Positions 5,527 to 64,000 of a DNA stretch of 64,000 nt are shown one piece after another. A program made the position numbers and the translations under genes. Source of the DNA: Eledone cirrhosa (Eukaryota); assembly GCA_964016885.1 (NCBI GenBank), contig OZ024740.1:121768001-121832000 (forward strand), given 5' to 3'. Every line of letters starts with the position of its first letter. Within the stretch, counting starts at the first letter, position 1. Below the pieces are notes generated by a model that worked only from the letters and a program-made list of their open reading frames with translations, was not told the DNA's origin and did not search any database.

Positions 5527-5532
<6 letters not shown>

Positions 5533-8537: not shown

Positions 8538-8539
8538 AA

Positions 8540-10650
<2,111 letters not shown>

Positions 10651-13416: not shown

Positions 13417-13489
13417 TATATATATATATATATATATATATATTTCTAAATGCATACACACACATATATGTTTAAACCCTCTCCCTATA

Positions 13490-13685
13490 TATAACAAAGA
13501 ATGAGTGCCAAGATACTAGGTGGACTAAAACGTAACAGAGTACTCGATACTTAGGATAGTAGAGTGGATAATATGAAAAGAGTCAGGACCTACGAGTAGG
13601 CTCGGGGCGTTCGACAACTAGATCCGAACTCATCGGATCTAGCTCTCGAAATGGCCGGAGCTAAGCCCATCGGGGTCCTAACTCT

Positions 13686-19690: not shown

Positions 19691-19691
19691 T

Positions 19692-22600
19692 TATTATTAT
19701 TATTATTATTATTATTTTTATTACTCTTTGAGTCTCAGTCATTGATGTTTGTTAACTGGAAATTTTGTTGAAATGAATATCAAGCCACTACCTGCAGCCT
19801 CAAATATTCAGGACGTATCGGATGGTTCTTGCTGTTCCCAGCAAGCATGCCTTTTGAAGCATTCCAAAAAGCGTGAAGGGGACAATTTTATTTAACCATC
19901 CCTGGGAACTTTTTGAGATAGTCCCTAGTGCGCCTATGACAATCGGGATCACTTTGACTTCATGGCAGTTCCAAATCCTTTTTACTTCCCACTTTAAGTC
20001 CTGGTATCGGTTAATTTTCTCCTTCTCCTTCTCTTGCACTCTCGTGTCGAATGGGCAGGCCACATCCACAATCAGGCACGATCTTTTTTCTTTGTCCAAA
20101 ACCACCAGGTCAGGTCTATTGTGTTCCAGTTTCTTGTCCGTCTGTATCCTAAAATCCTACAGCACCTTCACCTGATCGTTTTCTATCACCGCCTCTGGCT
20201 TATGCTCATACCACTTCTCAAAATGTGGTAAATTGTTTACTTTGCATAGGTGCCAGTGGATCACCCTGCCCATCACATCATGTCTCCAGCCCTTATAGTG
20301 AGTCTGGGCTAGGTGTTTACACTCGGATACAATGTGAGCCACAGTCTCCTCTCTCTCTCCACATATCCTGCACAGTGGGCTAGCCTCCTCCTTGTAAATG
20401 TGGTGTTTCAACCACTTCGGTTTGAGGGCCTGCTCCTGCGCAGCCATTAACATTCCTTCTGTAGCCTTTTTAAGGTCTCCTCTTTTCAACCAGTTCCATG
20501 TCTGTGGATCTCTAAATTCAATTCTCTCAAAGAAGGTACTCTGAAGGGATTTTTCCTGAAGGCTGCTCTTTCTTGTTGATGTTATTTCCTCCTTGGACAT
20601 CCCCTGGCCTATTGTCCCCTCCTTCAGTACAGTTCTGAGAATTGGCTCCTTACTATCAGTCACGTATTTGTGTAGGTTGTTTATCTCTATCTGAACACAG
20701 TCCTCTATGCTGATAACACCTCTTCCATCCTCAGATCTCCTTAAGTAGAGTCTATCGACATCACTCCTCTTGTGGAACATGTTGTAGATAGTCAATAGTT
20801 TCCTAGTCTTCCTATCCATTTCTTTTTGTTCATCAACATTCCATCTCAGAATTCCCGCACTGTACCTAATAATAGACACAGCTCGGGAATTTACTGCACT
20901 TATGGCATTCCTACTGTTCAGATGTGACTTTAATACGCTCCTTACTCTCCGAAGGTATTCAATTCTTATCAATTCCTTCATTTTTTTGTTCTTGATGTCA
21001 TCAGCCTCCAGAACACCCAAATACTTGTATCCTTCCTCAGAGTCAATTTCCTTTATCATCTCACCTGTTGGTATCTGGATTCCGTTACTTCTGCTCAACT
21101 TTTCCCCCTCATCACAATGACTCCACACTTACTAATACCAAATTGCATACATATATCATTGCTGAAAATACGGACAGTGTAAACAAGCACATCCAACTCC
21201 TTCTCACTCTTCCCGAAGAGCTTAAGATCGTCCATGAAGAGGAGGTGATTGATGGTAAGCCCTCCCTTTCCAAACCTGTATCCTGCTCTCACTGGTCAGG
21301 CGTATCAGGGGCGCAGTACACCGGTCAGGGGCATCAGGGCAAGGACAAACAACAGAGGGGACATACTATCTCCCTGGATGATACCTCTCTTGATCTTCAC
21401 GCATCCCAAGGATTCTCCAGTTGATGTTAACTCTGTTTCCCAGGATTTCATACATTTGCCCAACAACTGTCTGATGTTATCTTCCACCTTGAAGATCTCC
21501 AGACTTTTGGTGATCCAAGAATGAGGCACCATGCCAAATGCCTTTTTGTAGTCTATCCATCCCATGGCAAGACCAGTGTGTCTCCTCCTACAATTCCTCA
21601 TTACCATCTTATCAATACGTAACTGGTCCTTTGTACCACGTGACTTCTTTCGGCATCCTTTCTGTTCGTCCGATAACAAGTTGTTTGTGTGGAGGTGATG
21701 GTAGATTTCCTCCGACAATGCTTGTCAACAGTTTCCACATTAAGGACAGATATGTGATAGGTCTATAGTTGGTAACATCATTACCCTTGATTCGGTCTTT
21801 CATTATCAGAACTGTGGTACCTTTTGTCAACCACTCTGATACCTCACCTGACATCAAGCAGTCATTGAACATGGTTGTCAGTTTCGGGTGGAGGGATGTT
21901 ATGTTTTAATCCAATACTTCTGCACACCATCTGGGCCAGGTGATTTCAAGTTGGTTAGTTTTTTGGCCTGCCCCTTAAGAGTTTCAACTGTGATACTCAA
22001 ATCAGTTTGTTGGTGTGCCTGTTCACTGATCTCCTTCTGTGCTGTCTTAATCCACACTGCCTGGTCATTATGTTTAACATCCTGCTCCCATATTCCTCTC
22101 CAGAATGTTTTAGTTTGTTCCGCCTCAGGGATGAAGTCGTTGCCTCTTTCTTTCCCTTCAAGCTGTCCAACCAAACATCTTCTGGTTGTTGTCGAACATA
22201 TGGTTCTGTCTATACTGACTGACTCTGTTCTCGTATCGCCTGATTTTTGCACTCTTTGCTATAATGCGTTGCTTCAGTTCCTCTTTGATAATATTTAGCT
22301 TTTTACTCCTAGTTTTGTACTTTATTTCCAGTCTATTTTTAGTGTCTATGTTTTTTAGTGTCCCATTCAGTAGGGACTCAAGCTTTCCAATGTCATTTCT
22401 CATTTCCCTGATTTAACGACTCAGTCGTTTCTTCCACCAAGGCTCTGCTCTTTCTTGTCTGTTGTTTCCTCTCGCTTTTATACCAAGTAGTTTCCTCACC
22501 GTATTTGCTGTTGCTTTGAGGATATTGTTGCACTGGTGAAGGCTCCTCGCCTCAAGGTATGGGATGACTTTGTTTACCTTAGCTGTTGTTTCTTTTAACT

Positions 22601-24843
22601 TTTTCCTGTCTACAAATCTTAGGTTCATAGGTCTCCCACTATCATTGTTCAATTCATCTACCACTAAGTTTAGGAGATCAACCAAATCTTGTCCTACCCC
22701 GTCAGCATTCATCTCCTCAGTGGCCGTATTTCTGTTCCAGGTACTATTTATCTCAGCATTCAGATCATTGTCTGCTTCGGGTGGTTACTCCGTTCTCTCG
22801 ACCTCTTCACCTCTATTTCCCACTAGCTCGTTTGCATGGCATACCCCACTCTCCCTCTCCAAGCTAATCTCTCTGCTCAGTTCCTCCAGTTCTAGCTCGC
22901 TTATCCACCCATTAGTTCTTATTACCCGAGCCTGCCCGGCCAATTTTTGTTCATCTAATTTAAATAGACCAATCTCGTTTCAGATGTTATGCATCCGTTT
23001 CCTATAGCCTGTCTCCTTGGGGTTACTCTTCAGGTAACATTGCATAACAGTTCTATTCAATTCTTTCGTCCAGTTGGTTCTGGTCCCTTTCCTTCTTCTT
23101 CTTCCTCCGACACCAGCAGTATTTGGTTGACAGCCAGGTTCTTGCTGCTGAGCTAGGGAGCACCTGTTGGGTGAGAGTCTGTTACATGACATTCTAGTCT
23201 CCATTTCACCGTTATTCGAACTGTTTAGGTTCGACATTTAAACACTCCTATCGAGGATTGGCGAATGTATGGTTACATAACCAGCGGTGAATTCATCGTC
23301 TCCGGTGGTTTCATCACTCCACGTGACTTTTGTGTGGCATTATCACGCTGTAGACGAACACAAATAAACAAACAAACAAACAGCCAGAAAAAAACCCCAA
23401 AATGAATAAGCATAATTTCATTGTAATGTAGTGTTTGAATGTCTGACTTAGTTTTTCCCTTCCCTTCTCAGTCCGTCTGTTTGTTTTTCTCTTCATTCTT
23501 ATTTTCTTTACGTTTGTCGTTGTTGCTGTGCTGCTTTGATTTTGATTTTTTTTTTATTTGACCGGGTCATCAATTCAGTCTATTTATATATTTTGATGCC
23601 TTCCTCTTTTTGTGAGAATTCTACAATGTAGCATGGGCTAGCGGGAGAGAATAGCGGCGGTAGTGATAATGAGGCTGTGGTGGTGGTAGTGGTGGTGGCG
23701 GTGCTGTGCTAGCAGCAACTAGCAGGAGGTGGTGGGAGAGAATAGCAGCGGTAACGATAATGAGGCAGTGGTGCTGGTGATGTGGTCGTATTACTGTAGT
23801 GATGGTGTTGAAGTTGGAGTAGAAATTTGTGTCGACTTGACCAGAGTTTTCATCGTGGTAGTGGTGGTGTTGGTGGTGAAATTATCTTTAGTGAAATTAT
23901 TATTAGTCGCGTATATGTGATGACATATTTTTCTTAATAATGGAATTAAACATTTTGTTAAAACTAAAACATGATTTTTATTTTATTTTTCTTTATTTTG
24001 ACCGGGTCATCAATTCAGTCTATTTGTATATTTTGATGCCTTCCTCTTTTAGTGGGAATTCTACAATGTAGCAGGGGGCAGCGGGAGAGAATAGCGGCGG
24101 TAGTGATAATGAGGCAGTGGTGGTGGTGGTGGTGGTGGTGGTGGCGGTGCTGTGCTAGCAGCAACTAGCAGGAGGTAGTGGGAGAGAATAGCGGCGGTAG
24201 CGATAAGGAGGCAATGTTGGTGGTGATGTGGTCGTATTACTGTAGTGATGGTGTTGAAGTTGGAGTAGAAATTTGTGTCGACTTGACCAGAGATTTCATC
24301 GTGGTAGTGGTGGTGGTGTTGGTGGTGAATTTATGGTTAGTGAAATTATCGTTAGTCGCGTATATGTGTTGACATATTTTACTTAATATTGGAATTAAAC
24401 ATTTTGTTAAAACTAAAATTTGAGGCAATAATAAAAGTAATTATTATTATTATGCTGAGATTGGTGGTGGTGGTTGTGAAATTGCCGTTATCTGGCTGTT
24501 GTGTTTAGTGTACACAGAGGGGTGATGGGGTAGGTGGTGTATCTAGTTTCTGATGTTGGTGAAATTGCTGTTATTTGCCTGTTCTATATAGTGTAGACAG
24601 AGGGGATTTCTTCCATTTATAACTATTTTCTTTTTTTGAATATAAAATGTATAATACAACATTGAATATTTGAGCGATATAACAATATATTATGGATCCG
24701 AAATTGTTTGGGACTCAAGCCGGATGTTTTATGTATCATTTGTACTAAGAATTGTTATTTCACAATTGATTTAAATATGTTAAAAAATCAAAACTTACGG
24801 TAGTGAGTTCACGACCTTCTATCCACCATGTGCGTCTTCTTCC
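19692..24843 (-). mobile_element. R4/Dong-clade element family B, full-length degenerate copy
   Basis: ORF pieces 19800-23237 colinear with the 24979-28370 ORF; (TAA)n tail; 5' end homologous to ~29880-30045. Confidence 0.93.
23545..24420. repeat. Two ~440-bp tandem units in the 5' UTR of the Dong copy
   Basis: TTTGACCGGGTCATCAATTCAGTC...TTTTGTTAAAACTAAAA occurs twice (from ~23557 and ~23997). Confidence 0.85.
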
Positions 24844-24844
24844 C

Positions 24845-24892
<48 letters not shown>

Positions 24893-24978
24893 GTTATTGT
24901 TATTCCTTGAATCTCAGTCATTGATGTTGGTTAACTGGAAAGTCCGTTGGATTGAATATCAAGCCACTACCTGCAGCC

Positions 24979-27900
24979 TCAGATATTCAGGACGTATCGG
25001 AGGGTTCTTGCCGTTCCAAGCAAGCATGCCTTTTGAAGCGTTCCAAAAAGCGTGAAGGGGCCGATTTTCTTTAACCATCCCTGGAAACCTTTGGAGATAG
25101 TCCCCAGTGCGCCTATGACAATCGGGATCACTTTGACTTCATGGCAGTTCCAAATCCTTTTCACCTCCCACTTTAGGTCCTGGTATCGGTTAATTTTCTC
25201 CCTCTCCTTCTCTTGCACTCTCGTGTCGAACGGGCAGGCCACATCCACAATCAGGCACGATCTTTTTTCTTTGTCCACAACCACCAGGTCAGGTCTATTG
25301 TGTTCCAGTTTTTTGTCCGTCTGTATCCTAAAATCCCACAGCACCTTCACCTGACTGTACTCCATCACCGCCTCTGGCCTATGCTCATACCATTTCTCAG
25401 AATGTGGTAGATTGTTTACTTTGCACAGGTGCCAGTGGATCACCCTGCCCATCACATCGTGTCTCCAGCCCTTATAGTGGGTCTGGGCTAGGTGTTTACA
25501 CTCGGACACAATGTGAGCCACAGTCTCCTCTCTCTCTCCACAGATCCTGCACAGTGGGCTAGCCTCCTCCTTGTAGATATGGTGCTTCAACCACTTCGTT
25601 TTGAGGGCCTGCTCCTGCGCAGCCATTAGCATTCCTTCTGTAGCCTTTTTGAGGTCTCCTCTTCTCAACCAGTTCCATGTCTGTGGATCTCTAAATTCAG
25701 TTTTCTCAAAGAAGGTACTATGAAGGGATTTTCCCTTAAGGCTGCTCTTCCTCCTTGATGTTATTTCCTCCTTGGGTATCCCCTGGCCTACTGTCCCCTC
25801 CTTCAGTACAGCTCTGAGCATTGGCTCCTTACTATAGGTCACGTATTTGTATCGGTTGTTTTTCTCCATCTGAACACAGTCCTCTATGCTGATAAGACCT
25901 CTTCCACCCTCAGATCTCCTTAGGTAGAGTCTATCGACATCACTCCTCTTGTGGAACATGTTGTAGATAGTCAATAGCTTCCTAGTCTTCCTATCCATTT
26001 CTTTTTGTTCAGCAACATTCCATCTCAGGATTCCCGCACTGTACCTAATAATAGACACAGCTCGGGAATTTACTGCGCTTATGGCATTTCTGCTGTTCAG
26101 ATGTGACTTCAATACGCTCCTTACTCTCCGAATGTATTCAGTTCTTAACAATTCCTTCATTTTTTTGTTCTTTATGCCATCAGCCTCCAGAACGCCCAAA
26201 TACTTGTATCCTTCCTCAGAGTCAATTTCCTTTATCATCTCATCTGTTGGTATCTGGATCCCGTTACTTCTGCTCAACCTACCCCTCCTCATCACAATGA
26301 CTCCACATTTACCAATACCAAACTGCATACATATATCACTGCTGAAAATACGGACAGTGTCAACAAGCACATCCAACTCCTTCTCACTTTTCCCGAAGAG
26401 CTTAAGATCGTCCATGAAGAGGAGGTGATTGATGGTAAGCTCTCCTCTTCCCAACTTGTATCCTGCTCTCACTTTTCGCAGCATAATGGTCAAGGGCATC
26501 AGGGCAAGGACAAACAACAGAGGGGACAGGCTATCTCCCTGGAAGATACCTCTCTTGATCTTCACGCTTCCCAAGGATACTCCAGTTGATGTCAACTCTG
26601 TCTCCCAGGACCCCATACTCCTGCCCAGCAACTGTCTGATGTTATCTGCCACCCTGAAGATCTCCAGGCTTTTGGTGATCCAAGAATGAGGCACCATGTC
26701 AAATGCCTTTCTGTAGTCTATCCATCCCATGGCAAGATCAGTGTGTCTCCTCCTGCAATTCCCCATTACCATCTTATCAATAAGCAACTGGTCCTTTGTA
26801 CCACGTGACTTCTTTCGGCATCCTTTCTGTTCGTCCGGCAACAAGTTGTTTGTGTGGAGGTGATGGTAGATTTCCTCAGACACAATGCTCGTCAACAGTT
26901 TCCACATTACGGGCAGACATGTGATAGGTCTATAGTTGGTAACATCATTACCCTTGATTCGGTCTTTCATTATCAGAACTGTGGTACCTTTTGTCAACCA
27001 CTCTGGCACCTCACCCGACACCAAGCAGTCATTGAACATGGCCGTCAGCTTCGGGTGGAGGGATGTTAAATGTTTAATCCAATACCCCTGCACACCATCT
27101 GGGCCTGGTGATTTCCAGTTGGTTAGTTTTTTGGCTTGCCCCTTAAGAGTTTCAACTGTGATACTCAAATCAGTCTGTTGCTGTGCCTGCTCACCGATCT
27201 CCCTCTGTACTGTCTCAATCCACCCTGCCTGGGCATTGTGTCTAACATCCTGCTCCCATATTCCTCTCCAGAATGTTTTAGCTTGTTCCGCCCCAGGGAT
27301 CAAGTCGTTGCCTCTTTCTTTCCCCTCAACCTGTCCAAACAGCATCTTCTGGTTGTTGTCGAACATGCGGTTCTGTTTATACTGACTGACTCTGTTCTCG
27401 TATCGCCTGATTTTGGCACTCTTTGCTACAATGCGTTGCTTCAATTCCTCTATGATAATATTTAGCTTTTTACTCCTAGTTTTGTATTTTATTTCCAGTC
27501 TAATTTTAGTGCCTATGTTTTTTAGTGTCCCATTCAGTAGTGACTCAAGCTTTCCTATGTCATTTCTCATTTCCCCGATTTGCCCACTCATCGCTTCCTC
27601 CACCACGGCTCTGCTCTTTCTTGTCTGTTGTTTCCTCTCGCTTTTATACCAAGTAGTTTCCTCACCGTATTTGCTGTTGCTTTGAGGATATTGTTGCACT
27701 GGTGAAGACTCCTCGCCTCAAGGTATGGGATGACTTTGTTTACCTTAGCTGTTGTTTCTTTTAACTTTTTCCTGTCTACAAATCTTAGGTTCATAGGTCT
27801 CCCACTATCATTGTTCAACTCATCTACCACTAAATTTAGGATGTCAACCGAATCTTGTCCTAGCCCGTCAGCATTCATCTCCTCAGTGGCCGTATCTCTG

Positions 27901-28370
27901 TTCCAGGTATTATTTATCTCAGTATTCAGATCATTGTCTGCTTCGGGTTGTTCCTCCGTTCTCAGGACCTCCTCACCTTCATTTCCCGCCGGCTCGCTTG
28001 TCTGGCATACTACACCCGCCATCTCCAAGCCATTCTCTCTGCTCAGTTCCTCCAGTTCCAGCTCGCTTATCCACCCATTAGTTCTTATTACCCGAGCCTG
28101 CCCGGCCAATTTTTGTTCATCTAATTTAAATAAACCAATCTCGTTCCAGATGTTATGCATCCGTCTCCTGTAGCCCCTCTCCTTGGGGTTACTTTTCAGG
28201 TAGCATTGCATAACAGTTCTATTCAATTCTTTCGTCCAGTTGGTTCTGGCCCCTTTCCTTCTTCTTCTTCCTCCAACATCAGCAGTATTTGGTTGACAGT
28301 CAGGTTCTTGCTGCTGAGCCAGGGGGCACCTGTTGGGTGAGAGTCTGTCACATGACGTTCTAGTCTCCAT
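24979..28370 (-). CDS. Reverse transcriptase / zinc knuckle / restriction-like endonuclease polyprotein (frameshift near 27590)
   Basis: ORFs 27588-28370 and 24979-27699: WKSPGPDG, YRPITCL, GIFQGDSLSP, FMDDLK, CRIC..ETVAHIVSEC, RHD, NRPDLVV, DVACPFD, K..RYQDL. Confidence 0.93.
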
Positions 28371-28939
28371 TTCACCGTTATTCGAACTGTTTATGTTCGA
28401 TATTTAAACACTCTTATCGAGGATTGGCGAATGTATGTTTACATAGCCATCTGTGGATCCGCCATCCCACTTGGCCCTTGTGTGGCATTATCACCACGCT
28501 GTATACGGACACACATAAACAAACAAACACACGGGCAGAAAGGGCCCCAAAAATGAATAAGCATAAGTTTCATTGTAATGTAGTATTCGAATGTCTGACT
28601 TAGTTTTTGTTTTTTAAGTTTTACTTTTTCCCCCCTCTTCTCTGTCCGTCCGCCTGCTTCTCTCTTCATTCTTATTTTCTTTACGTTTTGGGGGTTTCTT
28701 TTTTTGTTTTTGTTTTTCTCTGTTTTTCTCGTTTTTTACTGTTGTTGCTGTGCTGCTTTTGTTGTTTGTTTTTTCTTTTTTCTTTTGAGTCTATCTATAT
28801 ATTTTGATGCCTTCCTCTTTGTTAGTAGTAGGAATTCTATAATGTGGAAGTGGTAGCCAGCAGAGACTGGCGGCGTTGGCGATACTGAGACAGTGGTGGT
28901 GGTGATGTCGGTACTGAGGCAGTGGTGGCGGTGATGCGA

Positions 28940-42730: not shown

Positions 42731-42814
<84 letters not shown>

Positions 42815-42921
42815 GTTAAAATACTGGAGTATGTTGGAGTTAAACACCCTCCTCGTATTATAGAAATGACAGTAAAAGGTATAGCTCAATGTAGTTAAAC
42901 AGAGCCGAAAAATTATTTTAA

Positions 42922-44101
42922 TTTTTTTAATTTCCGGTTGATTCTATTTATTTATTTTATTTTATATTTTATATTTTATATTTTATTTGTAATACTACTG
43001 TGCATTATATTTACTGTCTGGCACTTACTCACTCATCCATATACATGTCTGTCTACCAACCTTGTAATTATAAGTAATTATATATTATATTATAGTATAT
43101 TAATTTATTTTATATAATATATTATATTATATTGTATTTTTTATTGTAATATTGATCCTTATTACTTACCGTTAATTGTATGTAACATTATGATATGTTA
43201 AACTTTATATATCATGTAAGATGTTTGGACTTTTGTACCATCAACATTTTTTTGAGGTATTGTACAATTTATTTTTCCTCACCTACTCTGTAACCCAGTA
43301 TGAATTGATTTGTTAACTTGAGTACCTTTATATTGTTTATTATAAATGTTAGTATATTGTATATTGTAAATGTTAATATATTATTATTATATTATTATTG
43401 TGACATCTATATTGTTTGTGTAAATTAACCGGAGATTATCTATCCTATTATATTGTATTATATAGTATATAACTGTATTATTTATTATTTATTATATGTG
43501 CTACTTATAATTATATCATATTATTACCTCATGTATATTGGGTAGACGTATTAGTAATATTATTATTATTATTTTCATTCCTATCATGCTTATTTTTATA
43601 TTCAAACTCTTAATACGGTTTAATTTGTGCAGTTGAAGATGGATGTGTATATTGTTGTATGTGTATGTGTGTGTACGTGTGTGCATATATATACATATGC
43701 ATATTGTACCTTTTGATTTTTATTGTAATTTTAATGTTGGTAAAGGTATATTATATTATATTATATTATATTATATTACATTGTATTATATATAATTCCT
43801 GCTATATATAACCACCTTTGTTTAGCTCTAGTTTTTTTTGCTTTGGACTATATTTGTAATATGGTTCTTAATGTTATATACATCCTTAGTAATTTTTATT
43901 ATATATTTTTATTATTTTTATTATACATTTTTGCAATACTTTAGTGTATGTACACTCCATATTCTTCGGAGCTTCCGGCTGTATCTGCCGATATTACTTC
44001 TTGTTGTTTTAATTGCCCTGATGAGTCCTTAATAGGACGAAACATTGTCGGCTAATAAAGACTTTTGATGTATTGAAGGCTTCTTTGTTTTACTCTCTTA
44101 A
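42922..44101 (+). repeat. 5' pseudo-LTR
   Basis: Near-identical to 47688-48858. Confidence 0.95.
44015..44052 (+). ncRNA. Minimal type-I hammerhead ribozyme (canonical core)
   Basis: GCC-CTGATGA-GTCCT TAAT AGGAC-GAAAC-ATT-GTC-GGC, followed by TAATAAA. Confidence 0.93.
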
Positions 44102-44277
44102 TTTTTCGGCTCTGTTTAACTACATTGAGCTATACCTTTTAATGTCATTTCTATAATACGAGGAGGGTGTTTAACTCCAACACACTCCAGTATTTTAACC
44201 CTTGTCACTGCTCCCGATCGGTTGAGCTTCCTCATATATACTGGTATTTTGGCCTTTATATATATACATCTGACAGT

Positions 44278-46963
44278 ATGCTAACAAATAGTTACCTGCC
44301 TTTATCGCTGAAGAATATCCCCACCCCTCTAAGAATACTTACGAAAAACTATTGATAGCTAGTGTTAACTCCTTTGTAAAAAGGATTAGATGGCGTGCTT
44401 TCCACTATGATAATAATAAGAATAGGAAGGACCCCAGGAATAGAACTATTTTTAATAACTACGGCTTCAAAACTTATAAGAGCCCACCACACAATATTCT
44501 GTTAGATAGTTTTGAAAGTGACTTACTCTCTCTTGTCAAAAATATTAGGTATAGGCCAAATAATAGACATAGAAATTATAATAATTTTGATAAGTTCCAG
44601 TCTAGACTTAAAAATATTGTTAAGGGTTTCGGTGAGAATAAGTCCATTCTTGTCCCGGCAGATAAGACTAGGAATCTATACTCCATGGATTATAGTGCTT
44701 ACCGCGACTTTATTTTTAAGGAGCTGCATAGAAACTATAAAAAAACCTACGCTTGAGAATTTGAACCACATCAATAGTGATGGCCTTAGAATTGTCTCTG
44801 ACCTCGGCCTCGATAAGTATACCCAGCCATATTACCCTCGAGAACCGAGATTCACTCTTAAGGATTATAAGGTTGATTTTATTAGTAACCCCTCTGTTAG
44901 ACTCATCTGTCCTTCTAAGTCTGATATAGCCATTATCAGTAAAAAAATCCTTGACCTTATTATACCAGATGTTAGGGATAAGGTTAATTTTAACCTATGG
45001 GGGAACACTAAGGAAGTTATAGATTGGTTCTCCGGGATTAATAGACTTGAATCTAATAATTTATCCAATTCGATATTGATGCCTACTACACATCAATTTC
45101 ACCCATCCTCCTCAATAAAGCTTTAATGTTGGCCATGAGAGTATCCGGCCTTACACGATCACAGGTAGAGATTATACTAGCAGCCCGTAAAACTATTATT
45201 AAATTTGAGGACACATTTTGGACCCGTAAAAACACGCCCAATAATTTCGACGTTACAATGGGTTCGAGTGATTCGGCCCAGGTTACTGATCTTGTTGGGT
45301 TGTTCCTCCTTAATGAACTATATGCTACCTTCCCGCACCTTATAGGCGGACTATATCGTGATGATGCATTGTTTGTAATTAACTCTAGCACCAACAATGT
45401 AGAACATAATAAGAAGAAGCTTTATAAGTTTTTTAAAAGCTATAACCTTTCGATCACGATAGATAGAAATGATAGAGCGGTTAACTTTTTAGATGTGACT
45501 TTGGACTTGGTCACTAATAGTTTTAAACCCTTCCATAAGCCTAATGAAATACTTTCTTATGTTAGTCCCAATTCTAACCACCCCAAGTCTATGATAAGCT
45601 CTATAATTAAGGGTGTATCTAATAGGATTTCCACACTCTCTAAGGACGTAGGAACATTTAATGAACATGCGGAGTACTATAATAATGCCCTAGCAAATTC
45701 AGGTTACTCTAATAAAATACAATATAATAATAGTAACCTTAGAAAGTCTCCGTCTACTTTTAATAATAATAACATAATATCACATAACATGGCCATGAAT
45801 GGGAGTAGCAAACATAGTAACCGTAAAAATTATATAGGTGTATCTGAAACCATCCATAAGTCAAACCACCGGACTCGTAATAGTGAATATAATACCTCTA
45901 GGAAACAAGTTGAACCCCCTGAGCGCTCACACATTGGTGATAATTTTGCTGGATCTTATTCTAATAATATTGCTCCTACTGATCCTATCATTGGCCCTAA
46001 TCCTTATGATGGGATTCCGGACAGCAGCAGATCTACTGGAGGTGGAAACTGTAATAGACAATGAAATTTTGGCTGATTCTATAAATGTGGCTTTAACTAA
46101 TCCTTGTAGTAACCCTAGTCTCGATGGTGGGATATTTGATAATGGTAGAGTCGGTAAGAATAAAAATAGAAGGCGATTAAATACTTATTTTAACCCGCCA
46201 TATAATCAGGAAGTATCAACTAATATCCCTAGGTCTTTCTTCTCTATCTTAGAGAAAAATGTCCCCCCTTCTCATAAATGCCATAGTATTTTTAATAAAA
46301 ATGTTATTAAACTTTCATTCTCTACCACCCCTAATATTAGTTCTCATTTAGCTAGCACTAACAATAGGAAAATTAGGGATGGATTCTCCTCTCTACATAC
46401 TACTAGTCTGAACAGATCTGGCAATGCATTACCACCAGAACAGTCCTTAACTAATAGCAATCCTACGTGTAATGCATCACCACTTGAGTCAACCAATAAC
46501 ACCCGGAAGTGCAATTGTAGAGTGAGATTCCTAACTTCCCTTTAAACGGTAACTGCCTTTCTAAGAACATTGTCTATGCTTGCGAAGTTATAACTAATTC
46601 CTCTAATAGAACTCATATAGGCTCTACATCTAACACTTTTAAGACTAGGTTTAACTCTCATATCTCTAATTTCAAGCATGTTAAGTTTAAGAATTCTACT
46701 TCTTTAGCACATTATAGCTGGGATCTTAAGGGAGCTAATATACCATATAGCCTTAACTGGCGTTTAGTAGCACGCTCTAATCACCTTTCTACACATACTA
46801 AGTTTTGTAATCTCTGTATCCTCGAATCACACTCTATAATCTTCTCTAGCGCATCTTTACTTAATAGAAAGTCTGAGATATTCTCTTCTTGCCCCCATGC
46901 TATTTCTAATTCATACTTTTATTATAAACCTAAACGTTCTAGTAGTACAAATTGTACCCATTA
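44278..46963 (+). pseudogene. PLE RT-GIY-YIG ORF with several frameshifts
   Basis: SLKNIP, RIRWRAF, ADKTRN, VRLICP, FDVTMGS, GLYRDD, NFLDVT, SNHP, YFNPPY, CNC, IVY..HIGST..FKTRF, CNLC, LNRKSE. Confidence 0.92.
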
Positions 46964-47687
46964 GCTGGTATATTCCATTATTTATTTTTTAGTTTAGGTT
47001 CTTTTGTTTGCCAACGTTATTATTATCATCATTATTATCATTGGTTTTTGATGACTCTTTATTCTAACTCTCATAATCTTTTGGCTACTGTACCATATCT
47101 ATCTTCTTATGCATTAAATTTTCACTATTACACCTTATGAATGTATATAAGATTATATATTTTACGCTATTTATTTTATTTTATTCTTATTTTTATTTTT
47201 TTTTATTCGGATTCTTCTTTGGAACCCGCCCCCCCCCCCCATGCGCACATAAACTTAGTGTCAACCCCTCCAAGTTGACTATGATTATATTATATTTAAC
47301 CGCCCCTCCTTTACGCTCCTTTCTATTATGTAATATAGTATATCGACTATATTTTATGCCCCTTTGCATCCTCCATATATTTCTCCATTTCTGTCCCTAT
47401 TAGCCTACCTTAATTCTGCTTAAGTCAGTTCTTTAGATATCGTTATGTATATGATAATAAAAAATGTTCATTCCTTTTTGTAAAGATTTGTAACGAAATA
47501 TTAAGGTTTATAAACTTTAATGACTTAAACTATAGCTAATATTATACTGCCTTATTGAATAGTTTAAATATTTTTAATATTAATTTATCAAATGGGGTTT
47601 TTGAGTCATTTACAGGGGTTGTTTCCTTAGTTTTTACTTAACTACTTAACTGCATGTGAGACCTAAATGTATACGTTTGTTTTTGTT

Positions 47688-48854
47688 TTTTTTAATTTCC
47701 GGTTGATTCTATTTATTTACTTTATTCTATATTTTATATTTTATATTTTATTTGTAATACTACTGTGCATTATATTTACTGTCTGGCACTTACTCACTCA
47801 TCCATATACATGTCTGTCTACCAACCTTGTAATTATAAGTAATTATATATTATATTATATTAATTTATTTTATATAATATATTATATTATATTGTATTTT
47901 TTATTGTAATATTGATCCTTATTACTTACCGTTAATTATATGTAACATTATGATATGTTAAACTTTATATATCATGTAAGATGTTTGAACTTTTGTACCA
48001 TCAACATTTTTTTGAGGTATTGTACAATTTATTTTTCCTCACCTACTCTGTAACCCAGTATGAATTGATTTGTTAACTTGAGTACCTTTATATTGTTTAT
48101 TATAAATGTTAGTATATTGTATATTGTAAATGTTAATATATTATTATTATATTATTATTGTGACATCTATATTGTTTGTGTAAATTAACCGGAGATTATC
48201 TATCCTATTATATTGTATTATATAGTATATAACTGTATTATTTATTATTTATTATATGTGCTACTTATAATTATATCATATTATTACCTCATGTATATTG
48301 GGTAGACGTATTAGTAATATTATTATTATTATTTTCATTCCTATCATGCTTATTTGTATATTCACACTCTTAATAAGGTTTAATTTGTGCAGTTGAAGAT
48401 GGATGTGTGTATTGTTGTATGTGTATGTGTGTGTACGTGTGCGCACATATATACATATGCATATTGTACCTTTTGATTTTTATTGTAATTTTAATGTTGG
48501 TAAAGTTATATTATATTATATTATATTATATTACATTGTATTATATATAATTCCTGCTATATATAACCACCTTTGTTTAGCTCTAGGTTTTGTTTGCTTT
48601 GGACTATATTTGTAATATGGTTCTTAATGTTATATACATCCTTAGTAATTTTTATTATATATTTTTATTATTTTTATTATACATTTTTGCAATACTTTAG
48701 TGTATGGACACTCCATATTCTTCGGAGCTTCCGGCTTGTATCTGCCGATATTACTTCTTGTTGTTTTAATTGCCCTGATGAGTCCTTAATAGGACGAAAC
48801 ATTGTCGGCTAATAAAGACTTTTGATGTATTGAAGGCTCCTTTGTTTTACTCTC

Positions 48855-48858
<4 letters not shown>
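47688..48858 (+). repeat. 3' pseudo-LTR
   Basis: Near-identical to 42922-44101; abuts (TA)n. Confidence 0.95.
48772..48809 (+). ncRNA. Minimal type-I hammerhead ribozyme (canonical core)
   Basis: Identical to 44015-44052. Confidence 0.93.
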
Positions 48859-48900
<42 letters not shown>

Positions 48901-48906
<6 letters not shown>

Positions 48907-49650
48907 GCGAGAAGAAACATTTAGATATAATTAGTAATAAGATGTATCATACCTAAACTGCTTCTAGATTCCTCGACTACGTAGTTTCGTGGCATAATCA
49001 AAAACAATACATCATAGAGATATAGAGCTTTTGTGAGGTATGCCGACTTATCAAGAGGATACCTCATTTTACTAGCTTCAAAGAGCACGTCTATAAGATG
49101 TGAGATAGAATCCCAAAAGGCGGAGGGGGAGTCAATCACGTGATACGACGGTCAAGAAACAGAGCTAAGCCCCTTATAACCCCGAAAAAAATACCACGGA
49201 GGCGGAGGGGGTATTTATATCGAGGCCGCAGAAGAGGTGGTTAAGGAGGCAAGAAGTATGAGTAATGGCAGCTTTCCAGCAGTCACTACACTTCAAGGAT
49301 TACTCGACAAGGGGGAGTTATAAACAATATATTGAGAAACACACAGATACATGCGGACACATACATATACATGAATATATCCACATCCATCCTTGAAACT
49401 ACGTAGTCGAGGAATCTAGAAGCAGTTTAGGTATGATACATCTTATTACTAATTATATCTAAATGTTTCTTCTCTCTTCATAATGTACTTATAGCTCTGG
49501 TTCAGTCTAATCCATTCGGATTGGTTTGTCCCAGTTATTCATAGAGCAACATCGGTTAAGGTTGGCACCATTAACTCAAGGATGGATGTGGATATTTTCA
49601 TGTATATGTATGTGTCCGCATGTATCTGTGTGTTTCTCAATATATTGTAT
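48901..49650. mobile_element. Retrozyme-like family R2: head-to-head, circularly permuted arms
   Basis: 48901-48988 is the reverse complement of 49395-49482; ~49318-49396 is the reverse complement of ~49576-49652; (TA)n on both sides. Confidence 0.8.
48970..49059 (-). ncRNA. Type-I hammerhead, U3-A8 core variant, long stem II
   Basis: Minus strand: TCCTC-TTGATAA-GTCGGCATA...TATGCCAC-GAAAC-TACGTA-GTC-GAGGA. Confidence 0.8.
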
Positions 49651-49677
49651 ATATATATATATATATAGATAGATATA

Positions 49678-49879
49678 TAACGAAGGAAATGTGGTAACGA
49701 ACCAGGTGGACCATAACGCACCAAAGTACTCAATACTTGGGGTAGTAGAGTGGGTAATAGGAACGAGTAGGACCCCGACGGCTGAGCTCAAGCCGTCTCG
49801 ACGGCTAATTATGGACTAAATTTAGTCCAGAATTAGCTGTCGAAACGGCTAGAGCTCAGCCGTCGGGGTCCTACTCGTT

Positions 49880-49884
<5 letters not shown>
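49678..49884. mobile_element. Fold-back element family P, copy 2 (near-perfect ~127-bp palindrome 49757-49884)
   Basis: Arms are reverse-complementary about ~49820; GAAAC-GGCT AGAGCTC AGCC-GTC-GGGG at 49842-49868. Confidence 0.85.
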
Positions 49885-53538: not shown

Positions 53539-53610
<72 letters not shown>

Positions 53611-53614
<4 letters not shown>

Positions 53615-53777
53615 AGAAAGTATGACCCGACGGTAGAAATAGTACTGAAAGAGTCGTCGAAACGGCTTCAGCTCTACTGACGGGGTCATACTTTCTCCTA
53701 TTACCTACTCTACTACCCTAAGTATTGAGTACTCTGGTGCGTTATGGTCCATCTGGTTCCTTACCACAAATCCTCCG

Positions 53778-53780
<3 letters not shown>
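53611..53780 (+). mobile_element. Fold-back element family P, copy 3
   Basis: Inverted arms 53611-53637 / 53673-53700; GTCGAAACGGCT; tail homologous to the reverse complement of 49678-49757. Confidence 0.75.
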
Positions 53781-53820
<40 letters not shown>

Positions 53821-54895: not shown

Positions 54896-55939
54896 ATATC
54901 ATGCACTCATCTGTCCATCTCGACGTATGAGTGTCTAGTTGCTTTACCTAAGTCAGTTAGTGGTAGTCCGACCCGACGAGGATGTGTCAACAAATATGTC
55001 GCCAAAGTCTTTCAAAAAAGGGTACATGTGATACAACAGTGTAGGCTTTGAGAGAGTTTAATTGGAAATAGAGCAAATGCGTTTGTCATCAATCATGCCT
55101 CTTCAAAATGCTGAAGTCAACTACATTCAAACACCTTAATGGTACCATAACAACTCGTTTTTCCCTTTTCTCTGTCCAGACTACTCGATCTAATATATTC
55201 ATGTGTGTATCTACAAACTGTATGAAAGCATCCCTTCTGGAACACATTTAGCTGATATCATTGTGTACCATATGGAGTCCAGAATCCACAACCATACATA
55301 TATAATAAATGCATGTTGGTTAATGATTAGGGTGTCTATTCATGGAACAGATGGAGCGTTGTGTTCTTAAGTAAAACACTTCATTTACATATTGCTGTAG
55401 TCCAGTCAGCTGAAAATGAGAAACAGCAGTAGCTGTGCTTTTGTCCTGCGATCAACTGGCCTCCTGTTAAGGAGATAGTGATGAAATTAATGCCTATGAA
55501 TGTGAGTTAAACACCGGAGTGGTGACTGTCTTGGCTTGGATCTAGCTTTCATCTATTTTCTTCTCCACAAACACGAATATATGAATGTATTTTTGAATAT
55601 ATGAATGTATATATATGAATATATGAAGTTAAATCGTGTGAAACCATAGCCGGACTAGAAGCTGATGAGTGTATAAAAATGTTTGTATGATATTCTGGCG
55701 TTCATTGTCTTCCTTTTCCTCTTTCTTCCTATCACTTCTGTAGACAAAAACACATCTGGCCGCTTAATTCTGTTCTTTCAGGTATAATTTACCCAACACT
55801 CTCCCTGACGACATTTTGCTCTTTTAAGAGCTTCATTGTGATTAGTGCATCTCATTATTCTACGAATTCCAATACACTCGCGCTTCAAACTCAATATCTC
55901 GATATACGGTATAACTTGTATACATACATACATACATAC

Positions 55940-56292
55940 ATGGTGGCTCCCAACTCGTTTTCAAGTACGGACACTACTTTATATCCATGTAGGAGAACCC
56001 CCAAAGATGCACTGAACGAGTGTGACTTTTTAGTCCAGCCAGAGCAAACTCACTGCACAAAGCCAGTCCCACTCTCTTAACCAAGATGATATTTACGAAA
56101 AAGAATAACAAGTCAACATCATTGGATACCATCAGAGTTGCAGGTGTTATATCAGAGTTTTCCTTCTCCTAGAATTATGCCTTGACAAAGGCTAAGGGAT
56201 CATCTCTGATATATATATATATATATACACATATATACATACATATATACATACACATATATATATATATACATACACATATACATACATAT

Positions 56293-56347
<55 letters not shown>

Positions 56348-57685
56348 CATATATACATACATATATACATACATATATATATATATATATGGTGGCTGCC
56401 AACTCGTTTTCGAGTACGGCCACTACTTTATATCCATGTAGGAGAACCCCCACCGATGCGCTGAACGAGTGTGACTTTTTAGTCCAGCCAGCGACTTGAA
56501 AACTCTGGTACAAACACTACACCTGTGACAATTATTGACACATAGTGCTGGGCCCATGGTACCATGTGACGACAAGTGCAGAGATCTCCAGATATAAAGC
56601 AATGCCTGTGCCGTGAAGCTTTTATAGTGAGCAAAGGCACTGCACAAAGCCAGTCCCACTCTCTTAACCAAGATGATATTTACCAAAAAGAAGAACAAGT
56701 CAACATCATTGGATACCATCAGGGTTGCAGGTGTTATATCAGAGTTTTCCTTCTCCTAGAATTCTGCCTTGACAAAGGCTAAGGGGTCATCTCTCCCGGT
56801 GATTTTGGATGGCCATTGACTATTAAGAGCTCATTTTCCCTTTGACAGGTTTTGTTTTTAGTCCTGCAGGATGTCCAAAGTCACCCTCCTCACCAAGAAA
56901 CCTCGGTGGGGTTGCCAGTTTAGTCGCCAACGACCCGACCATGGGACAGGTTGTACTGAGATACATGTTACCAGTAGCACCAATTGGTAACCTGACATAC
57001 ATACATACATACATACACACATGCATACATACATACATACATACATACATACATACATACATACATACATACATACATACATGGTGGTGGCTGCCAACTC
57101 GTTTTCGAGTATGGCCACTACTTTATATCCATGTAGGAAAACCCCTACCGATGCGCTGAACGGGTGTGACATTTTAGTCCAGCCAGCGACTTGAAAACTC
57201 TGGTACAAACTCTACACTTGTGACAATTATTGACACATAGTGCTGGTACCATGTGACGACAAGTGCAGAGAGATCTCCAGAAATAAATCAATGCCTGTGC
57301 CGTGAAGCTTTTATAGTGATCAAAGGCACTGCACAAAGCCAGTCCCACTCTCTTAACCAAGATGATATTTACCAAAAAGATGAACAAGTCAACATCATTG
57401 GATACCATCAGGGTTGCAGGTGTTATATCAGAGTTTTCCTTCTCCTAGAATTCTGCCTTGACAAAGGCTAAGGGATCATCTCTCCCGGTGATTTTGGATG
57501 GCTATTGACTCTTAAGAGCCCCTTTGCCTTTTGACAGGTTTTGTTTTTAGTCCTGCATGATGTCTAAAACCACCCTCCTCACCAAGATACCTTGAGGGGT
57601 TGCCGGTTTAGTCGCCAACGACCCGACTATGAGACAGGTTGTACTGGGATACATGTTACCAGTAGCACCAACTGGTGACCTGACA
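55940..57685 (-). mobile_element. Tandem array of three short internally deleted RTE-like elements with (ATGT)n tails
   Basis: Units ~55940-56207 (partial), 56389-56995 and 57081-57685; C2H2 remnant [22 protein letters not shown] typical of RTE/BovB C-termini; separated by (CATA)n. Confidence 0.7.
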
Positions 57686-57763
57686 TATATACATACATAC
57701 ATACATACATACATACATACATACATACATACATGAAGAAAGCATGCACGGTAGTGGAAATTA

Positions 57764-57881
57764 GAAAAAGTATGACCCGACGGCAGAGCTCAAGCCGTTT
57801 CGACGGCTATTTCTGGACTTAAATAGTCCAGAATTAGCCGTCGAAACGGCTTGAGCTCTGTCGTCGGGGTCATACTTTTTC
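57764..57881. mobile_element. Fold-back element family P, copy 4 (palindrome)
   Basis: Arms reverse-complementary about ~57821; GAAAC-GGCT TGAGCTC TGTC-GTC-GGGG at 57843-57869. Confidence 0.82.
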
Positions 57882-58061
57882 CTCTATATATATATATATA
57901 TATATATGGGATACCTAGTTATCGTTTAGGTAATCCAGTTAGAAGTTGTGACTACTCTGTACCGTTGATAGTTTTAACGTACGGCGTTGTTTGACTGAAC
58001 AAATGGTTTCCAAGGTAGCGAGTTGCCGAGAATTCCCATGCAGGTTACTCTTGGAGTAATA

Positions 58062-58296: not shown

Positions 58297-59485
58297 ATTT
58301 ATTAAAATAACAGATTAAAGTTTAAGCAAAGAATAGCTGCTTTCACCCTTAACGGGATCTTCTGAAACTAACAAAGTCAATCTGTAAACGCAGAACTGGA
58401 TATTTCAAAAAACGTTGCAACCGGAGGAAGACAGGAAGACGATACTTTGGTTCGTGGAAACGTTCCCTGGCAAAGAACGGGAAAAAACGAATATAATACG
58501 CCATTAATAGGAGCGGTGAAAAACAATTATGCGCAAAGACAGAACCACGTTTATGGTATAAAAGAGGTCGTAGACTAATGTTCTCTTAGGTGGTTCATAG
58601 AGACGTTCTCTGGCAATGAACGAAAAAAACGAAGATAATACTTCATATGAGGAGCGTGGAGAACAATTGCACGCAAAAGCAAAACCACGTAAATGGTATA
58701 ACTGAAGTCGTAGACTAAAATTCTAACTAGGAGACCGAATGAATCTCCGCTTCAGAGTGAAGAACAAAGTAAATAAATACAATACAGAGGTAACAGAAAT
58801 TAAATAAATACATACACGCATAAAAATACGTACATACACAAGCATACGTGGAAACACTTACCATAGGTATACAAAACCACGCACATATAAATATGTGTGT
58901 GTGTGTATGCATGTATACAAATACATAAATAATTAAATAAACGTATATAAATACATAAATACGTATATATCAAGCGCACACACATGCCTACATGTAACTA
59001 CACAAATGTTCGGAAACGTAAGTCAACCAAAACATGAAGTACACATACACACACCCTACATACGTACGAACCTGCATACTCACACAGACGCAAAACACCC
59101 GTATACACATAACCAAACCATATGTACCAGAAAATATAAAATTATACGCCATAACATATACAATCAAATATACGTACGAGAAGGTATACGTACCTTCACA
59201 AAACATACAGGTAATATATACTTACATATGCAAATAACTAATGGTATAAACAAAACATATACTTAGCTACCACATCAAGACGTAAAATATCCACGTATAG
59301 ATCGTACTATCCGTTAGGGTATAAAGTGGGGCTGTAACACAGGAAAGTTTTGTGCAATTTATGTTTACAAGCCGAAATTACCTGAGATTTTTTGTTTAAG
59401 ATGTGGTCTGTGGCGTAGAGTATTTCCAGGGCCTCACGGCGCAGGGGAGACATGGTCTTTTATATCCGTTATACGATCTAGCCCT

Positions 59486-59486
<1 letters not shown>
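58297..59486 (-). mobile_element. PLE 3' fragment (GIY-YIG end plus pLTR), same family as 5527-7410
   Basis: Colinear with 5527-6707; (TA)n at both ends. Confidence 0.92.
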
Positions 59487-59800: not shown

Positions 59801-60480
59801 ATACAAATAAAATATAGAGTTATTAACTCATATAGATACCCTGCAATTAACAAGCTCAAAGTGTAAATACTGAGCATTATAATATTAATATGTGTAGAAG
59901 TAAACACAGTAAACCCTTGTCTAAAATTACGAGGGTAGATTACACCACAAATGTTATATATCATTCAACCTGAATCATATGGGATGTTACAAGATTTCTT
60001 ACAAGATTTCTCATACATACCATATCAATAACCATTTCATCTCCCGTATCTATATGAGTTAATCACTCAATATTTTATTTGTATTTCGGCTCCTTATCTG
60101 TTGAGCTTATAAACATGAGTGTAAATAGGCTATTATGTCTAGCATAATCACTCGCACCGCATATAACTTTCAACGCACGAGGTGTAAACTTTAGTGAGTT
60201 TATTGTTATAGGTGTTATGTAACATTTAGTCTTATCTCCTGCTGACGAAATGCCTACGTATTACTTGTTACAAACACGATTCATTCAGGGCGAAACAGAT
60301 TAAATCTTTAGTTGACCGGGAGATGAATTGGTTATTGATATGTATGTATGAGAAATCTTGTAAGAAATCTTGTAACATCCCATATGATTCAGGTTGAACG
60401 ATATATAACATTTGTGGTGTAATCTACCCTCGTAATTTTAGACACGTCTTTACTGTGTTTACTTCTACACATATTAATAT

Positions 60481-60482
<2 letters not shown>
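59801..60482. mobile_element. Retrozyme-like family R3: head-to-head, circularly permuted arms
   Basis: 59879-60046 is the reverse complement of 60317-60482; 59801-59839 is the reverse complement of 60046-60084; HHR-like motif at 60234-60324. Confidence 0.78.
60234..60324 (+). ncRNA. Degenerate type-I hammerhead
   Basis: Stem I ATCTCCTG/CGGGAGAT, CTGACGA, GCC..GGC stem II, GAAAC; stem III and cleavage triplet irregular. Confidence 0.5.
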
Positions 60483-60544
<62 letters not shown>

Positions 60545-60621: not shown

Positions 60622-60898
60622 AACTCTTTTCTATTGGTCAATTCAAAACCTGTTCCCAAACAGACCTTTTATATTAATACTTTGTTTCTTTCAATAAACA
60701 TACTTCATCATTTCTGAAGATGACATGTATAGGTAAGGGTATGTATATCTCCTCCGAGAATTTGTAATATTTTTTACATAGGTCTTTAACATGATATACA
60801 TACCAACACATATGTATCCCAGAAACGATCGTAAAATGATGAATTTTTCAATATAAGGAACCTGTTCTTTGTTTTTATTTCATTGTTTCTATTAATTT
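60622..60898 (+). mobile_element. Solo pLTR end of the 8540-10522 PLE family
   Basis: Homologous to 10248-10525; ends at (TA)n. Confidence 0.85.
60704..60843 (+). ncRNA. Type-I hammerhead with extended stem II
   Basis: TTCATCATTT-CTGAAGA...GAAAC-GATC-GTA-AAATGATGAA. Confidence 0.75.
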
Positions 60899-60905
60899 AT
60901 ATATA

Positions 60906-61005
<100 letters not shown>

Positions 61006-63496: not shown

Positions 63497-63582
63497 ATAT
63501 TAATAAATTTGAAGACTAAAATCCAAAGAGGGCTCGATAAGGATAAATATATATCAAATATATAAGAACCGTAGAGCAAATA

Positions 63583-64000
63583 TTTATTAAAATAACAGAT
63601 TAAAGTTTAAGCAAAGAATCGCTGCTTTCACCCTTAACGGGAACTTCTGAAACTAACAAAGTCAATCTGTCAACGCAGAAATGGATATTTCAAAAAACGT
63701 TGCAACCGGAGGGAAGACAGGAAGATGATACTTTGGTTCGTGGAAACGTTCGCTATGCAAATAAGTAATGGTATAACAAACATACTTAGCTCCCACATCA
63801 AGACGTAAAATATCCACGTATAAATCGTACTTATCCGTTAGGGTATAACGTGGGGCTGTAATACAGGAAAGTTTTTGTGCAAGTTATGTTTACAAGCCAA
63901 AATTGCCTGAGATATTTTGTTGAAGATGTGGTCTGTGGCGTAGAGGATTTCCAGGGCCGCAGCGGCGCAGAGGTCACATGTTCTTTTATTTCCGTTATAC
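63583..64000 (-). mobile_element. PLE 3' fragment with internally deleted pLTR, runs off window
   Basis: Matches 5527-5697, then jumps to ~6448-6696 of the first copy. Confidence 0.9.

Follow-up and report, generated by a model that had tools for sequence, protein, structure and literature searches.

A permuted, head-to-head copy of an abundant 589-nt non-coding repeat with a predicted hammerhead in a (TA)n run: probably a retrozyme inserted by Penelope-type enzymes

How does a short sequence with a hammerhead ribozyme motif come to lie in a (TA)n run as two unequal, inverted and permuted arms, directly beside a Penelope element (PLE)? This question is raised by positions 48901–49653 of the window, the 64,000-nt stretch of Eledone cirrhosa DNA that was analyzed here. 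The anatomy of the locus is set by two inverted repeats: 48901–48988 is the reverse complement of 49395–49482 (87/88 identical), and 49319–49396 is the reverse complement of 49576–49653 (76/78 identical, with one mismatch at the TA edge). These matches confirmed the order B, middle, hammerhead, A that an earlier note on this DNA had assigned to the minus arm. The order given there for the plus arm (GAAAC, stem III and GTC, then A, spacer and B) was also recovered, but a start exactly at GAAAC was not, since the bases GA at 49395–49396 fit both arms and the plus arm can begin anywhere from 49395 to 49397, which leaves a 2-nt microhomology. Closing both arms gives a permuted unit of 589 nt, in agreement with the circle of roughly 590 nt that had been proposed. 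Unit positions are numbered from the first base 3' of the predicted cut (Table 1). The two arms stand head to head in (TA)n, both cross the predicted cut site, and the outer end of each is a 3' end that abuts a TA run.

Table 1. Coordinates of the element and its surroundings in the window
Feature	Position	Strand	Remarks
Hydra-like Penelope element, ORF frameshifted	42811–48858	+	Same head-to-head two-site layout; canonical hammerheads at 44012 and 48769
(TA)n target (inferred), left flank	48859–48902		TA runs; common to the 3' end of the neighboring PLE
Long arm of 496 nt, with B, middle, complete hammerhead and A	48901–49396	−	Unit 168/170 through the predicted cut site to 71–74
Segment A, 3' of the predicted cut	48901–48974	−	Predicted hairpin, unit 1–71; 3' foot is end site 1, unit 71–79
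Type I hammerhead motif	48970–49059	−	Stem I of 5 bp, long stem II, then GAAA and a short stem III; the cut is predicted to fall between 48975 and 48974
Self-complementary stem III segment	48976–48985	−	ACTACGTAGT; predicted duplex −14.3 kcal/mol
Core UUGAUAA	49048–49054	−	U3 is 49054, A8 is 49049
Middle segment, single-copy here, non-coding	49060–49318	−	Contiguous with B and hammerhead in other copies
Segment B, long-arm copy	49319–49396	−	3' end is end site 2 (unit 237–245); (TA)n loose ends at 49319 and 49327
Head-to-head junction, 2-nt microhomology	49395–49396		Bases included in both repeats
Short arm, 259 nt: 3' half of ribozyme, A, spacer, B	49395–49653	+	Unit −13/−11 to 241–245
Spacer, 93 nt, single-copy here	49483–49575	+	Contiguous with A and B in another copy (X4 record)
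Segment B, short-arm copy	49576–49653	+	Predicted hairpin, then end site 2
(TA)n target (inferred), right flank	49648–49667		TA runs

Read round the circle on both strands, the 589-nt unit (41% GC) has a longest open frame of 76 codons, or 48 codons from ATG. No long coding element, which the earlier note had named as a finding that would speak against its reading, was seen in the arms. The unit lacks an ORF for a reverse transcriptase (RT) or a GIY-YIG nuclease, as an autonomous PLE would carry; it is a short non-coding unit with one predicted type I hammerhead, as is typical of animal non-LTR retrozymes. The inverted, 5'-truncated, head-to-head copy with a microhomology junction is the form expected of a sequence mobilized by a PLE. 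A head-to-tail tandem with two ribozymes was absent at 48901–49653, and the records of other copies are too short to span a dimer. With a single complete ribozyme and neither strand carrying the entire unit, this copy is likely a dead end. By the right flank lies a 128-nt palindromic, MITE-like element (49757–49884), with relatives at 53578–53818, 57691–57907 and 13487–13680.

On the minus strand, the hammerhead motif comprises stem I (TCCTC/GAGGA), the core TTGATAA (49054–49048), GAAA, the stem III loop CTACGTAG and a following TC. Stem II is an interrupted hairpin of 59 nt that opens with a G-C pair, stem III consists of 2 bp and a tetraloop, and U3-A8 supplies the Watson-Crick pair required at 3:8. 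A strict motif scan, which accepted C3-G8 or U3-A8 cores and was tested on dinucleotide shuffles of the element, found the motif in 0/5000 shuffles. The Rfam hammerhead models had no match in the element, either with the whole window searched at E ≤ 5 or in a local search at E ≤ 10; Rfam microRNA and lncRNA matches were dismissed as microsatellite or hairpin noise. The 19-nt ribozyme pattern had no match among viral contigs, and its single match in a metagenome contig, GC-rich and without upstream core or stem II, was set aside as chance. We describe the motif as a predicted type I hammerhead with a U3-A8 core, self-cleavage likewise being a prediction. As the earlier note held, U3-A8 is a known functional variant; it is reported to be active in vitro in PMC3088659, which also describes natural examples, and ~1,300 such motifs were found via a Schistosoma PLE (PMC4209133).

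The 90-nt motif folded with a z-score of −3.4. With an open-ended stem I, stems II and III formed and G10.1-C11.1 present, the constrained fold reached −42.6 kcal/mol, and in the same monomer predictions a blocked fold, in which a segment upstream of the ribozyme pairs with the 5' side of stem II, reached −45.3 kcal/mol, 2.7 below the active one. The fold of 48970–49059 (minus strand) that had been suggested as a check gave a divided answer: the active fold forms, but it is not the fold of lowest energy. The segment 49067–49034 (minus strand) could pair either with the 5' side of stem II or with the sequence of end site 1, and is predicted to act as an on/off switch of the ribozyme. Stem III is self-complementary, as stated before, and its intermolecular duplex was predicted at −14.3 kcal/mol vs. 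−3.7 for stem III of the neighboring PLE. Dimer cleavage at this locus, with which the earlier note had found this palindrome consistent, is not supported, as the second (half) ribozyme lies on the opposite strand and one transcript cannot contain two ribozymes of the same sense. Dimer cleavage could occur only at tandem source loci, or in trans. Beyond the ribozyme, the predicted fold of hairpin A (plus-arm copy) was −21.5 in the sense and −8.1 in the antisense direction, and that of hairpin B −21.2 and −6.0, respectively. The circular fold of the unit reached −165.6 kcal/mol compared with −131.4 ± 7.0 for shuffles (0/40 as low) and −131.4 for the antisense strand. The better folding of both hairpins and of the circle in the ribozyme sense points, in these models, to selection on RNA of that polarity.

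Other copies of the unit were investigated in sequencing runs. Nine runs were listed, six of which contained part of the stretch (three studies; best word share 0.41), and four were compared at a likeness of 82. None of the runs listed was from RNA, which carries no information on expression. Run X1 may represent another species or population than the source of the window, given this best word share, and X4 and X6 contributed only three records and one record, from which nothing is claimed on their organisms. The 589-nt family is abundant, with 1313 contigs in X1 (82–100% likeness) and 2988 reads in X7, depth not being equivalent to copy number. Every pair of neighboring parts of the unit was contiguous in other copies (48921–49060, 49031–49259, 49140–49345, 49245–49356 and 49474–49618), which covers the joins of A with the ribozyme, the ribozyme with the middle, the middle with B, and A with spacer and B. 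Among the 40 variants listed out of 152, none fell at 48964–49027 or 49045–49075, U3 and A8 included. U3-A8 thus appears to be the family norm, and a minority with C3-G8 is compatible with these 40 variants. Homologues without U3 and A8, which were to count against the earlier reading, did not turn up among the variants listed, and the covariation that it had claimed is, within this family, an apparent conservation. Both arms of the present copy have the same letter at unit positions 12, 34 and 230, unlike the majority of X1 (~94–98%), and only two internal positions distinguish one arm from the other. The shared letters and the two differences fit one template and a young insertion, with the proviso that X1 is possibly from another population or species.

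Among the 16 loose ends of other copies listed out of 188, four led into a TA run, and all of these lay at two sites: 49319 (7 contigs; unit 245) and 49327 (4 contigs; unit 237) at one, and 49487 (5 contigs and 160 X7 reads; unit 79) at the other. The arms of the present copy end at the same two sites, while the loose ends of other copies carry no label as to which arm ends where. Among these listed ends, the unit has two alternative internal 3' ends downstream of the hammerhead (unit 71–79 and 237–245), as expected of a sequence mobilized by a PLE. The sites are ~165–170 nt apart and AT-rich, and each lies just 3' of a predicted hairpin.

Six of the nine joints listed were head-to-head, with upstream arms starting at unit 168–495 and downstream arms at unit 62–178. 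Given as upstream and downstream unit positions, these are 386/100, 362/62, 194/159, 495/178, 382/124 (window 49182/49532, found in both X1 and X7) and ~168/76, the last with 25 letters between the arms. Some of these joints are backed by no more than a single contig or a single read start, and two include sides shorter than 30 letters. The remaining joints (48993/49105, 49203/49350 and 49357/49600) were rejected as skips within one orientation. Permutations at other breakpoints, which the earlier note had suggested searching for, therefore exist in the family. None of the six downstream arms begins at GAAAC, which argues against GAAAC as a special or fixed boundary and makes it one of several breakpoints. 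Five of the six downstream arms start at or past site 1 and four of the six upstream arms start past site 2, as would follow from a tendency of each cDNA to end short of the opposite primer. The junction at 49395–49396 itself was absent among the joints and pieces listed.

The neighboring PLE (42811–48858) has direct repeats at 42916–44102 and 47681–48859 (97.7%), and its inverted arm, 42811–42915, corresponds to 44099–44203. In its own coordinates, 52 is the end of the long arm, and ~50–154 is covered by the short arm, which means that the latter runs back from the second site to the first and stops there. This inverted arm consists of the ~102 nt that separate the two end sites, in other words a copy of the "tail" in the other strand. 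The ORF contains the motifs RWR, DKT and YRDD, with a weak C-terminal GIY-YIG match (E 0.011, below the cut-off), and the hammerheads score 31.7 bits in Rfam, below the gathering score of 34. CxCx5C is not intact in this copy and is present in a second PLE at 6528–7559. With RWR in place of the RWK of the Hydra clade, DKT, a weakly matched GIY-YIG, a (TA)n target and a canonical hammerhead, the element agrees by its motifs with that clade as described in PMC8557442. It may serve as a model for the kind of helper, as a candidate only. Both ends of the PLE and both ends of the 589-nt element are flanked by (TA)n, and for this reason we read the TA run as a shared target microsatellite and not as a tail made by the PLE, as had been thought.

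In sequence, the two elements are similar only over 31 nt at 81%, with no clear homology. Segment B (49581–49646) scored 53 against a TG-rich part of the PLE terminal repeat (43637–43696; 0/300 shuffles); the tile with the second copy of that repeat scored 43 against a background of up to 46, and homology to the neighboring pLTR was dropped on this ground. An autonomous partner may lie elsewhere in the genome. A third, unrelated small element at 59801–60483 has the same permuted head-to-head layout, with a 477-nt unit and both ends in (TA)n. Its long arm reads B, middle, hammerhead-like motif, A and its short arm A, spacer, B, with 161/166 identical positions between the arms. Its hammerhead-like motif, with the core near 60242, is degenerate, and the cut triplet is non-canonical. 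No more than 1 nt separates the start of the short arm from the predicted cut, and no Rfam hammerhead was found at 60050–60480. The element at 48901–49653 has no convincing sequence in common with either neighbor.

We consider 48901–49653 to be a dispersed copy of an abundant 589-nt non-coding repeat, probably a non-autonomous retrozyme put into (TA)n by Penelope-type enzymes acting in trans. Source loci elsewhere would produce multimeric RNA, which would be cut by the ribozyme and circularized by a host ligase. A PLE GIY-YIG nuclease would cut both strands of (TA)n, and each free DNA end would prime reverse transcription at one of the two fixed internal sites (unit ~71–79 or 237–245). Both cDNAs would be copied back along a single RNA, whether a circle or an uncleaved multimer. 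In this copy, each cDNA would have overrun the start of the other, duplicating A and B, and the two cDNA ends would have been joined via the 2-nt microhomology. Such overrun on both sides would require either a multimer or, if the template was a circle, strand displacement. Given that both arms cross the cut, a cleaved linear monomer could not have been the template unless a jump occurred. That the short arm stops at GAAAC is likely due to stalling close to the base of stem II, and not to a programmed boundary. Points against this reading are the lower energy of the blocked fold, the missing Rfam match, the lack of a tandem source copy among the short contigs, the lack of clear homology to the neighboring PLE, and an interval between the end sites far above the published tail of 30–40 nt.

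Several of these steps have counterparts in published PLE work. Purified PLE protein was reported to cut and extend both strands of AT-rich DNA and to start at two internal RNA sites, with hammerhead cleavage dispensable in vitro and unprocessed RNA as the main template (PMC11167929), and Hydra PLEs were described as carrying hammerheads and targeting (TA)n (PMC8557442). Circular and uncleaved multimeric templates are equally compatible with the present sequence; the in vitro results of PMC11167929 favor unprocessed RNA and make a circle unnecessary. A more general proposal, which we put forward tentatively and with more doubt than confidence, is that Penelope insertion is a programmed form of twin priming, in which both (TA)n ends prime at two fixed sites, marked by hairpins, on a single circular RNA made by the ribozyme. 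That mechanism would account for the "tail", for the inverted pLTR and for the permuted arms of the retrozyme alike. If this is true, the 589-nt U3-A8 family, with its many dated junctions, is a direct genomic record of animal retrozymes moved by PLE enzymes from circular RNA.

The same helper and the same family may have worked without any circle, the template being an uncleaved linear read-through multimer (or two RNAs of one source locus) and the ribozyme being weak or acting at another step. We regard this as a credible though somewhat doubtful alternative, and it is a sub-case of the explanation preferred here. It would suit the crossing of the cut site by both arms and the predicted preference for the blocked fold, and it has parallels in the reports that hammerhead mutants had no effect on PLE insertion in vitro and that no RNA-seq reads ended at the cut site (PMC11167929), and that eight of nine Xenopus retrozyme dimers stayed uncleaved in vitro (10.64898/2026.07.22.740005). 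The core and short stems, however, look conserved among the abundant copies (within the 40 of 152 variants listed), the circle folds far better than shuffles in the ribozyme sense only, and the short arm at 59801–60483 begins where a cleaved 5' end would, within 1 nt of the predicted cut. An unlikely alternative is that a longer coding PLE elsewhere in the genome has this unit as its terminal repeat and tail, the locus being a pair of truncated end fragments of that PLE. Xenopus retrozymes are indeed reported as homologous to PLE pLTRs (10.64898/2026.07.22.740005), and some records continue in unlike sequence (from 49326 and 49369 in X4, from 49259 in X6; a share of 0.85 in X7). In X1, by contrast, that share was 0, and site 2 is followed directly by the middle and the ribozyme, both here and in the X1 pieces 49140–49345 and 49245–49356, which leaves no room for an ORF. 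The neighboring PLE does have its ORF after site 2, unlike the 589-nt unit with no open frame above 76 codons. Descent of the unit from a coding PLE is nevertheless likely.

Inversion could also have arisen through fold-back self-priming on an antisense template, following the model of PMC3846280, or, once inserted, through DNA-level rearrangement within a tandem array. That paper reports palindromes where inverted PLE arms meet and takes them as signs of self-priming, and a 10-nt palindrome lies just inside the plus arm. We nonetheless judge this route improbable, as the junction is non-palindromic and the arms begin ~180 nt apart in the unit (168/170 vs. −13/−11), with an offset in the six other junctions too, and a simple inversion would not give two 3' ends at recurrent sites, each on (TA)n. 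The palindrome that the PMC3846280 model predicts for the junction was looked for at 49395–49396 and was absent. An assembly artefact produced by a high-copy repeat would account for a joint that is missing from the joints and pieces listed, in a highly repetitive family and with a dip in depth in the bin 49379–49403. Against it, the arms differ at two internal positions yet have three X1-uncommon letters in common, like junctions occur in independent runs (49182/49532 in both X1 and X7), and two other elements in the window have the same layout; we hold an artefact to be very improbable.

Compared with known systems, the element would work like a non-autonomous PLE and, judged by its sequence, has the anatomy of an animal non-LTR retrozyme, the defining tandem copies and circular RNA aside. 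Its likeness to animal non-LTR retrozymes as described in PMC7229834 and 10.64898/2026.07.22.740005 includes the non-coding unit, a type I hammerhead with a short stem III, GC below 50%, a highly self-paired predicted circle, abundance and co-occurrence with PLEs. At 589 nt, the unit is inside the range of 51–972 bp (10.64898/2026.07.22.740005) and above that of 170–400 nt (PMC7229834). Those retrozymes are described as head-to-tail tandems or solo monomers, whereas at the present locus two permuted arms stand head to head in (TA)n and the two end sites recur among copies; the family is known here from DNA alone. A fold predicted to block the ribozyme, as found here, is attributed in PMC7229834 to plant and some mussel retrozymes and not to most animal ones.

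With EN+ PLEs of the Hydra clade (PMC8557442) and PLEs with an inverted pLTR or tail (PMC3846280; PMC11167929), the element has in common the inverted, 5'-truncated, head-to-head copy with a microhomology junction, the (TA)n target and a hammerhead upstream of two internal end sites. It differs in the lack of an ORF, in an interval of ~165–170 nt between the sites compared with the published 30–40 nt, in the overrun by each arm of the other's start, and in having no clear homology to the adjoining PLE. Head-to-head is given as the most frequent inverted PLE arrangement in PMC3846280. The Cercyon PLE hammerheads of Schistosoma mansoni (PMC4209133) and the variants of PMC3088659 resemble the present motif in the U3-A8 swap, the type I topology and a palindromic 15.2–16.2 region, and dual motifs on opposite strands, separated by 100–700 bp, had been described before in S. 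mansoni (PMC4209133). Those motifs are minimal, with a helix II of 7–8 bp, in contrast to the 59-nt stem II and the stem III of 2 bp and a tetraloop found here. The use of a palindromic stem III for dimer folding was also published in PMC4209133.

The ribozyme variant is not new, and U3-A8 cores, palindromic stem III, head-to-head PLE insertions, (TA)n targeting and retrozymes as PLE derivatives are all known already. The last of these, with retrozymes as derivatives or parasites of PLEs, was put forward in a 2026 bioRxiv preprint (10.64898/2026.07.22.740005), which bases the link on co-occurrence and phylogeny only. The route of tandem and inverted PLE insertion and the enzyme that moves animal retrozymes are stated as open in PMC8557442, PMC11167929 and PMC7229834. 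A small, abundant, ORF-free family with the insertion marks of PLEs (TA target, head-to-head arms and two end sites) adds mechanistic evidence. In the literature covered, which included few subscription papers or repeat databases and so gives weak evidence on this point, we found no unit of retrozyme size whose permuted arms stand head to head, end at two fixed sites and both cross the cut, and the same coverage showed no application of twin priming to PLEs.

Twin priming of L1 uses the poly(A) tail and a variable internal site on linear RNA. The likeness to the Ostertag and Kazazian model (PMC2246262) is that two ends of a target break prime two regions of one RNA and so give an inversion. 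In the present element, each of the two sites is internal and recurs among copies, and the long arm extends across the predicted cut site of the ribozyme.

Further repeats were observed in the window. Two hammerhead-like repeat copies at 10246–10594 and 60622–60967 are 88% alike, with a CTGAAGA core, a long stem II and a palindromic segment after GAAA, and they end in (TA)n. A second Hydra-like PLE family, with CxCx5C before GIY-YIG, occurs at 5528–8540, 58298–59486 and 63580–64000; it includes a 1132-nt inverted pair (6087–7218 and 7410–8540), on the minus arm of which no hammerhead core was found, and further fragments in (TA)n. At 55920–57734, direct repeats of ~690 nt are split by (TACA)n and (TA)n runs, with no hammerhead detected by motif scans. 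A tandem pair of LINE-like elements of ~5.2 kb each, 89% alike, occupies 19691–28903, and one of the two contains an RT-like frame of 912 codons on the minus strand (24979–27717).
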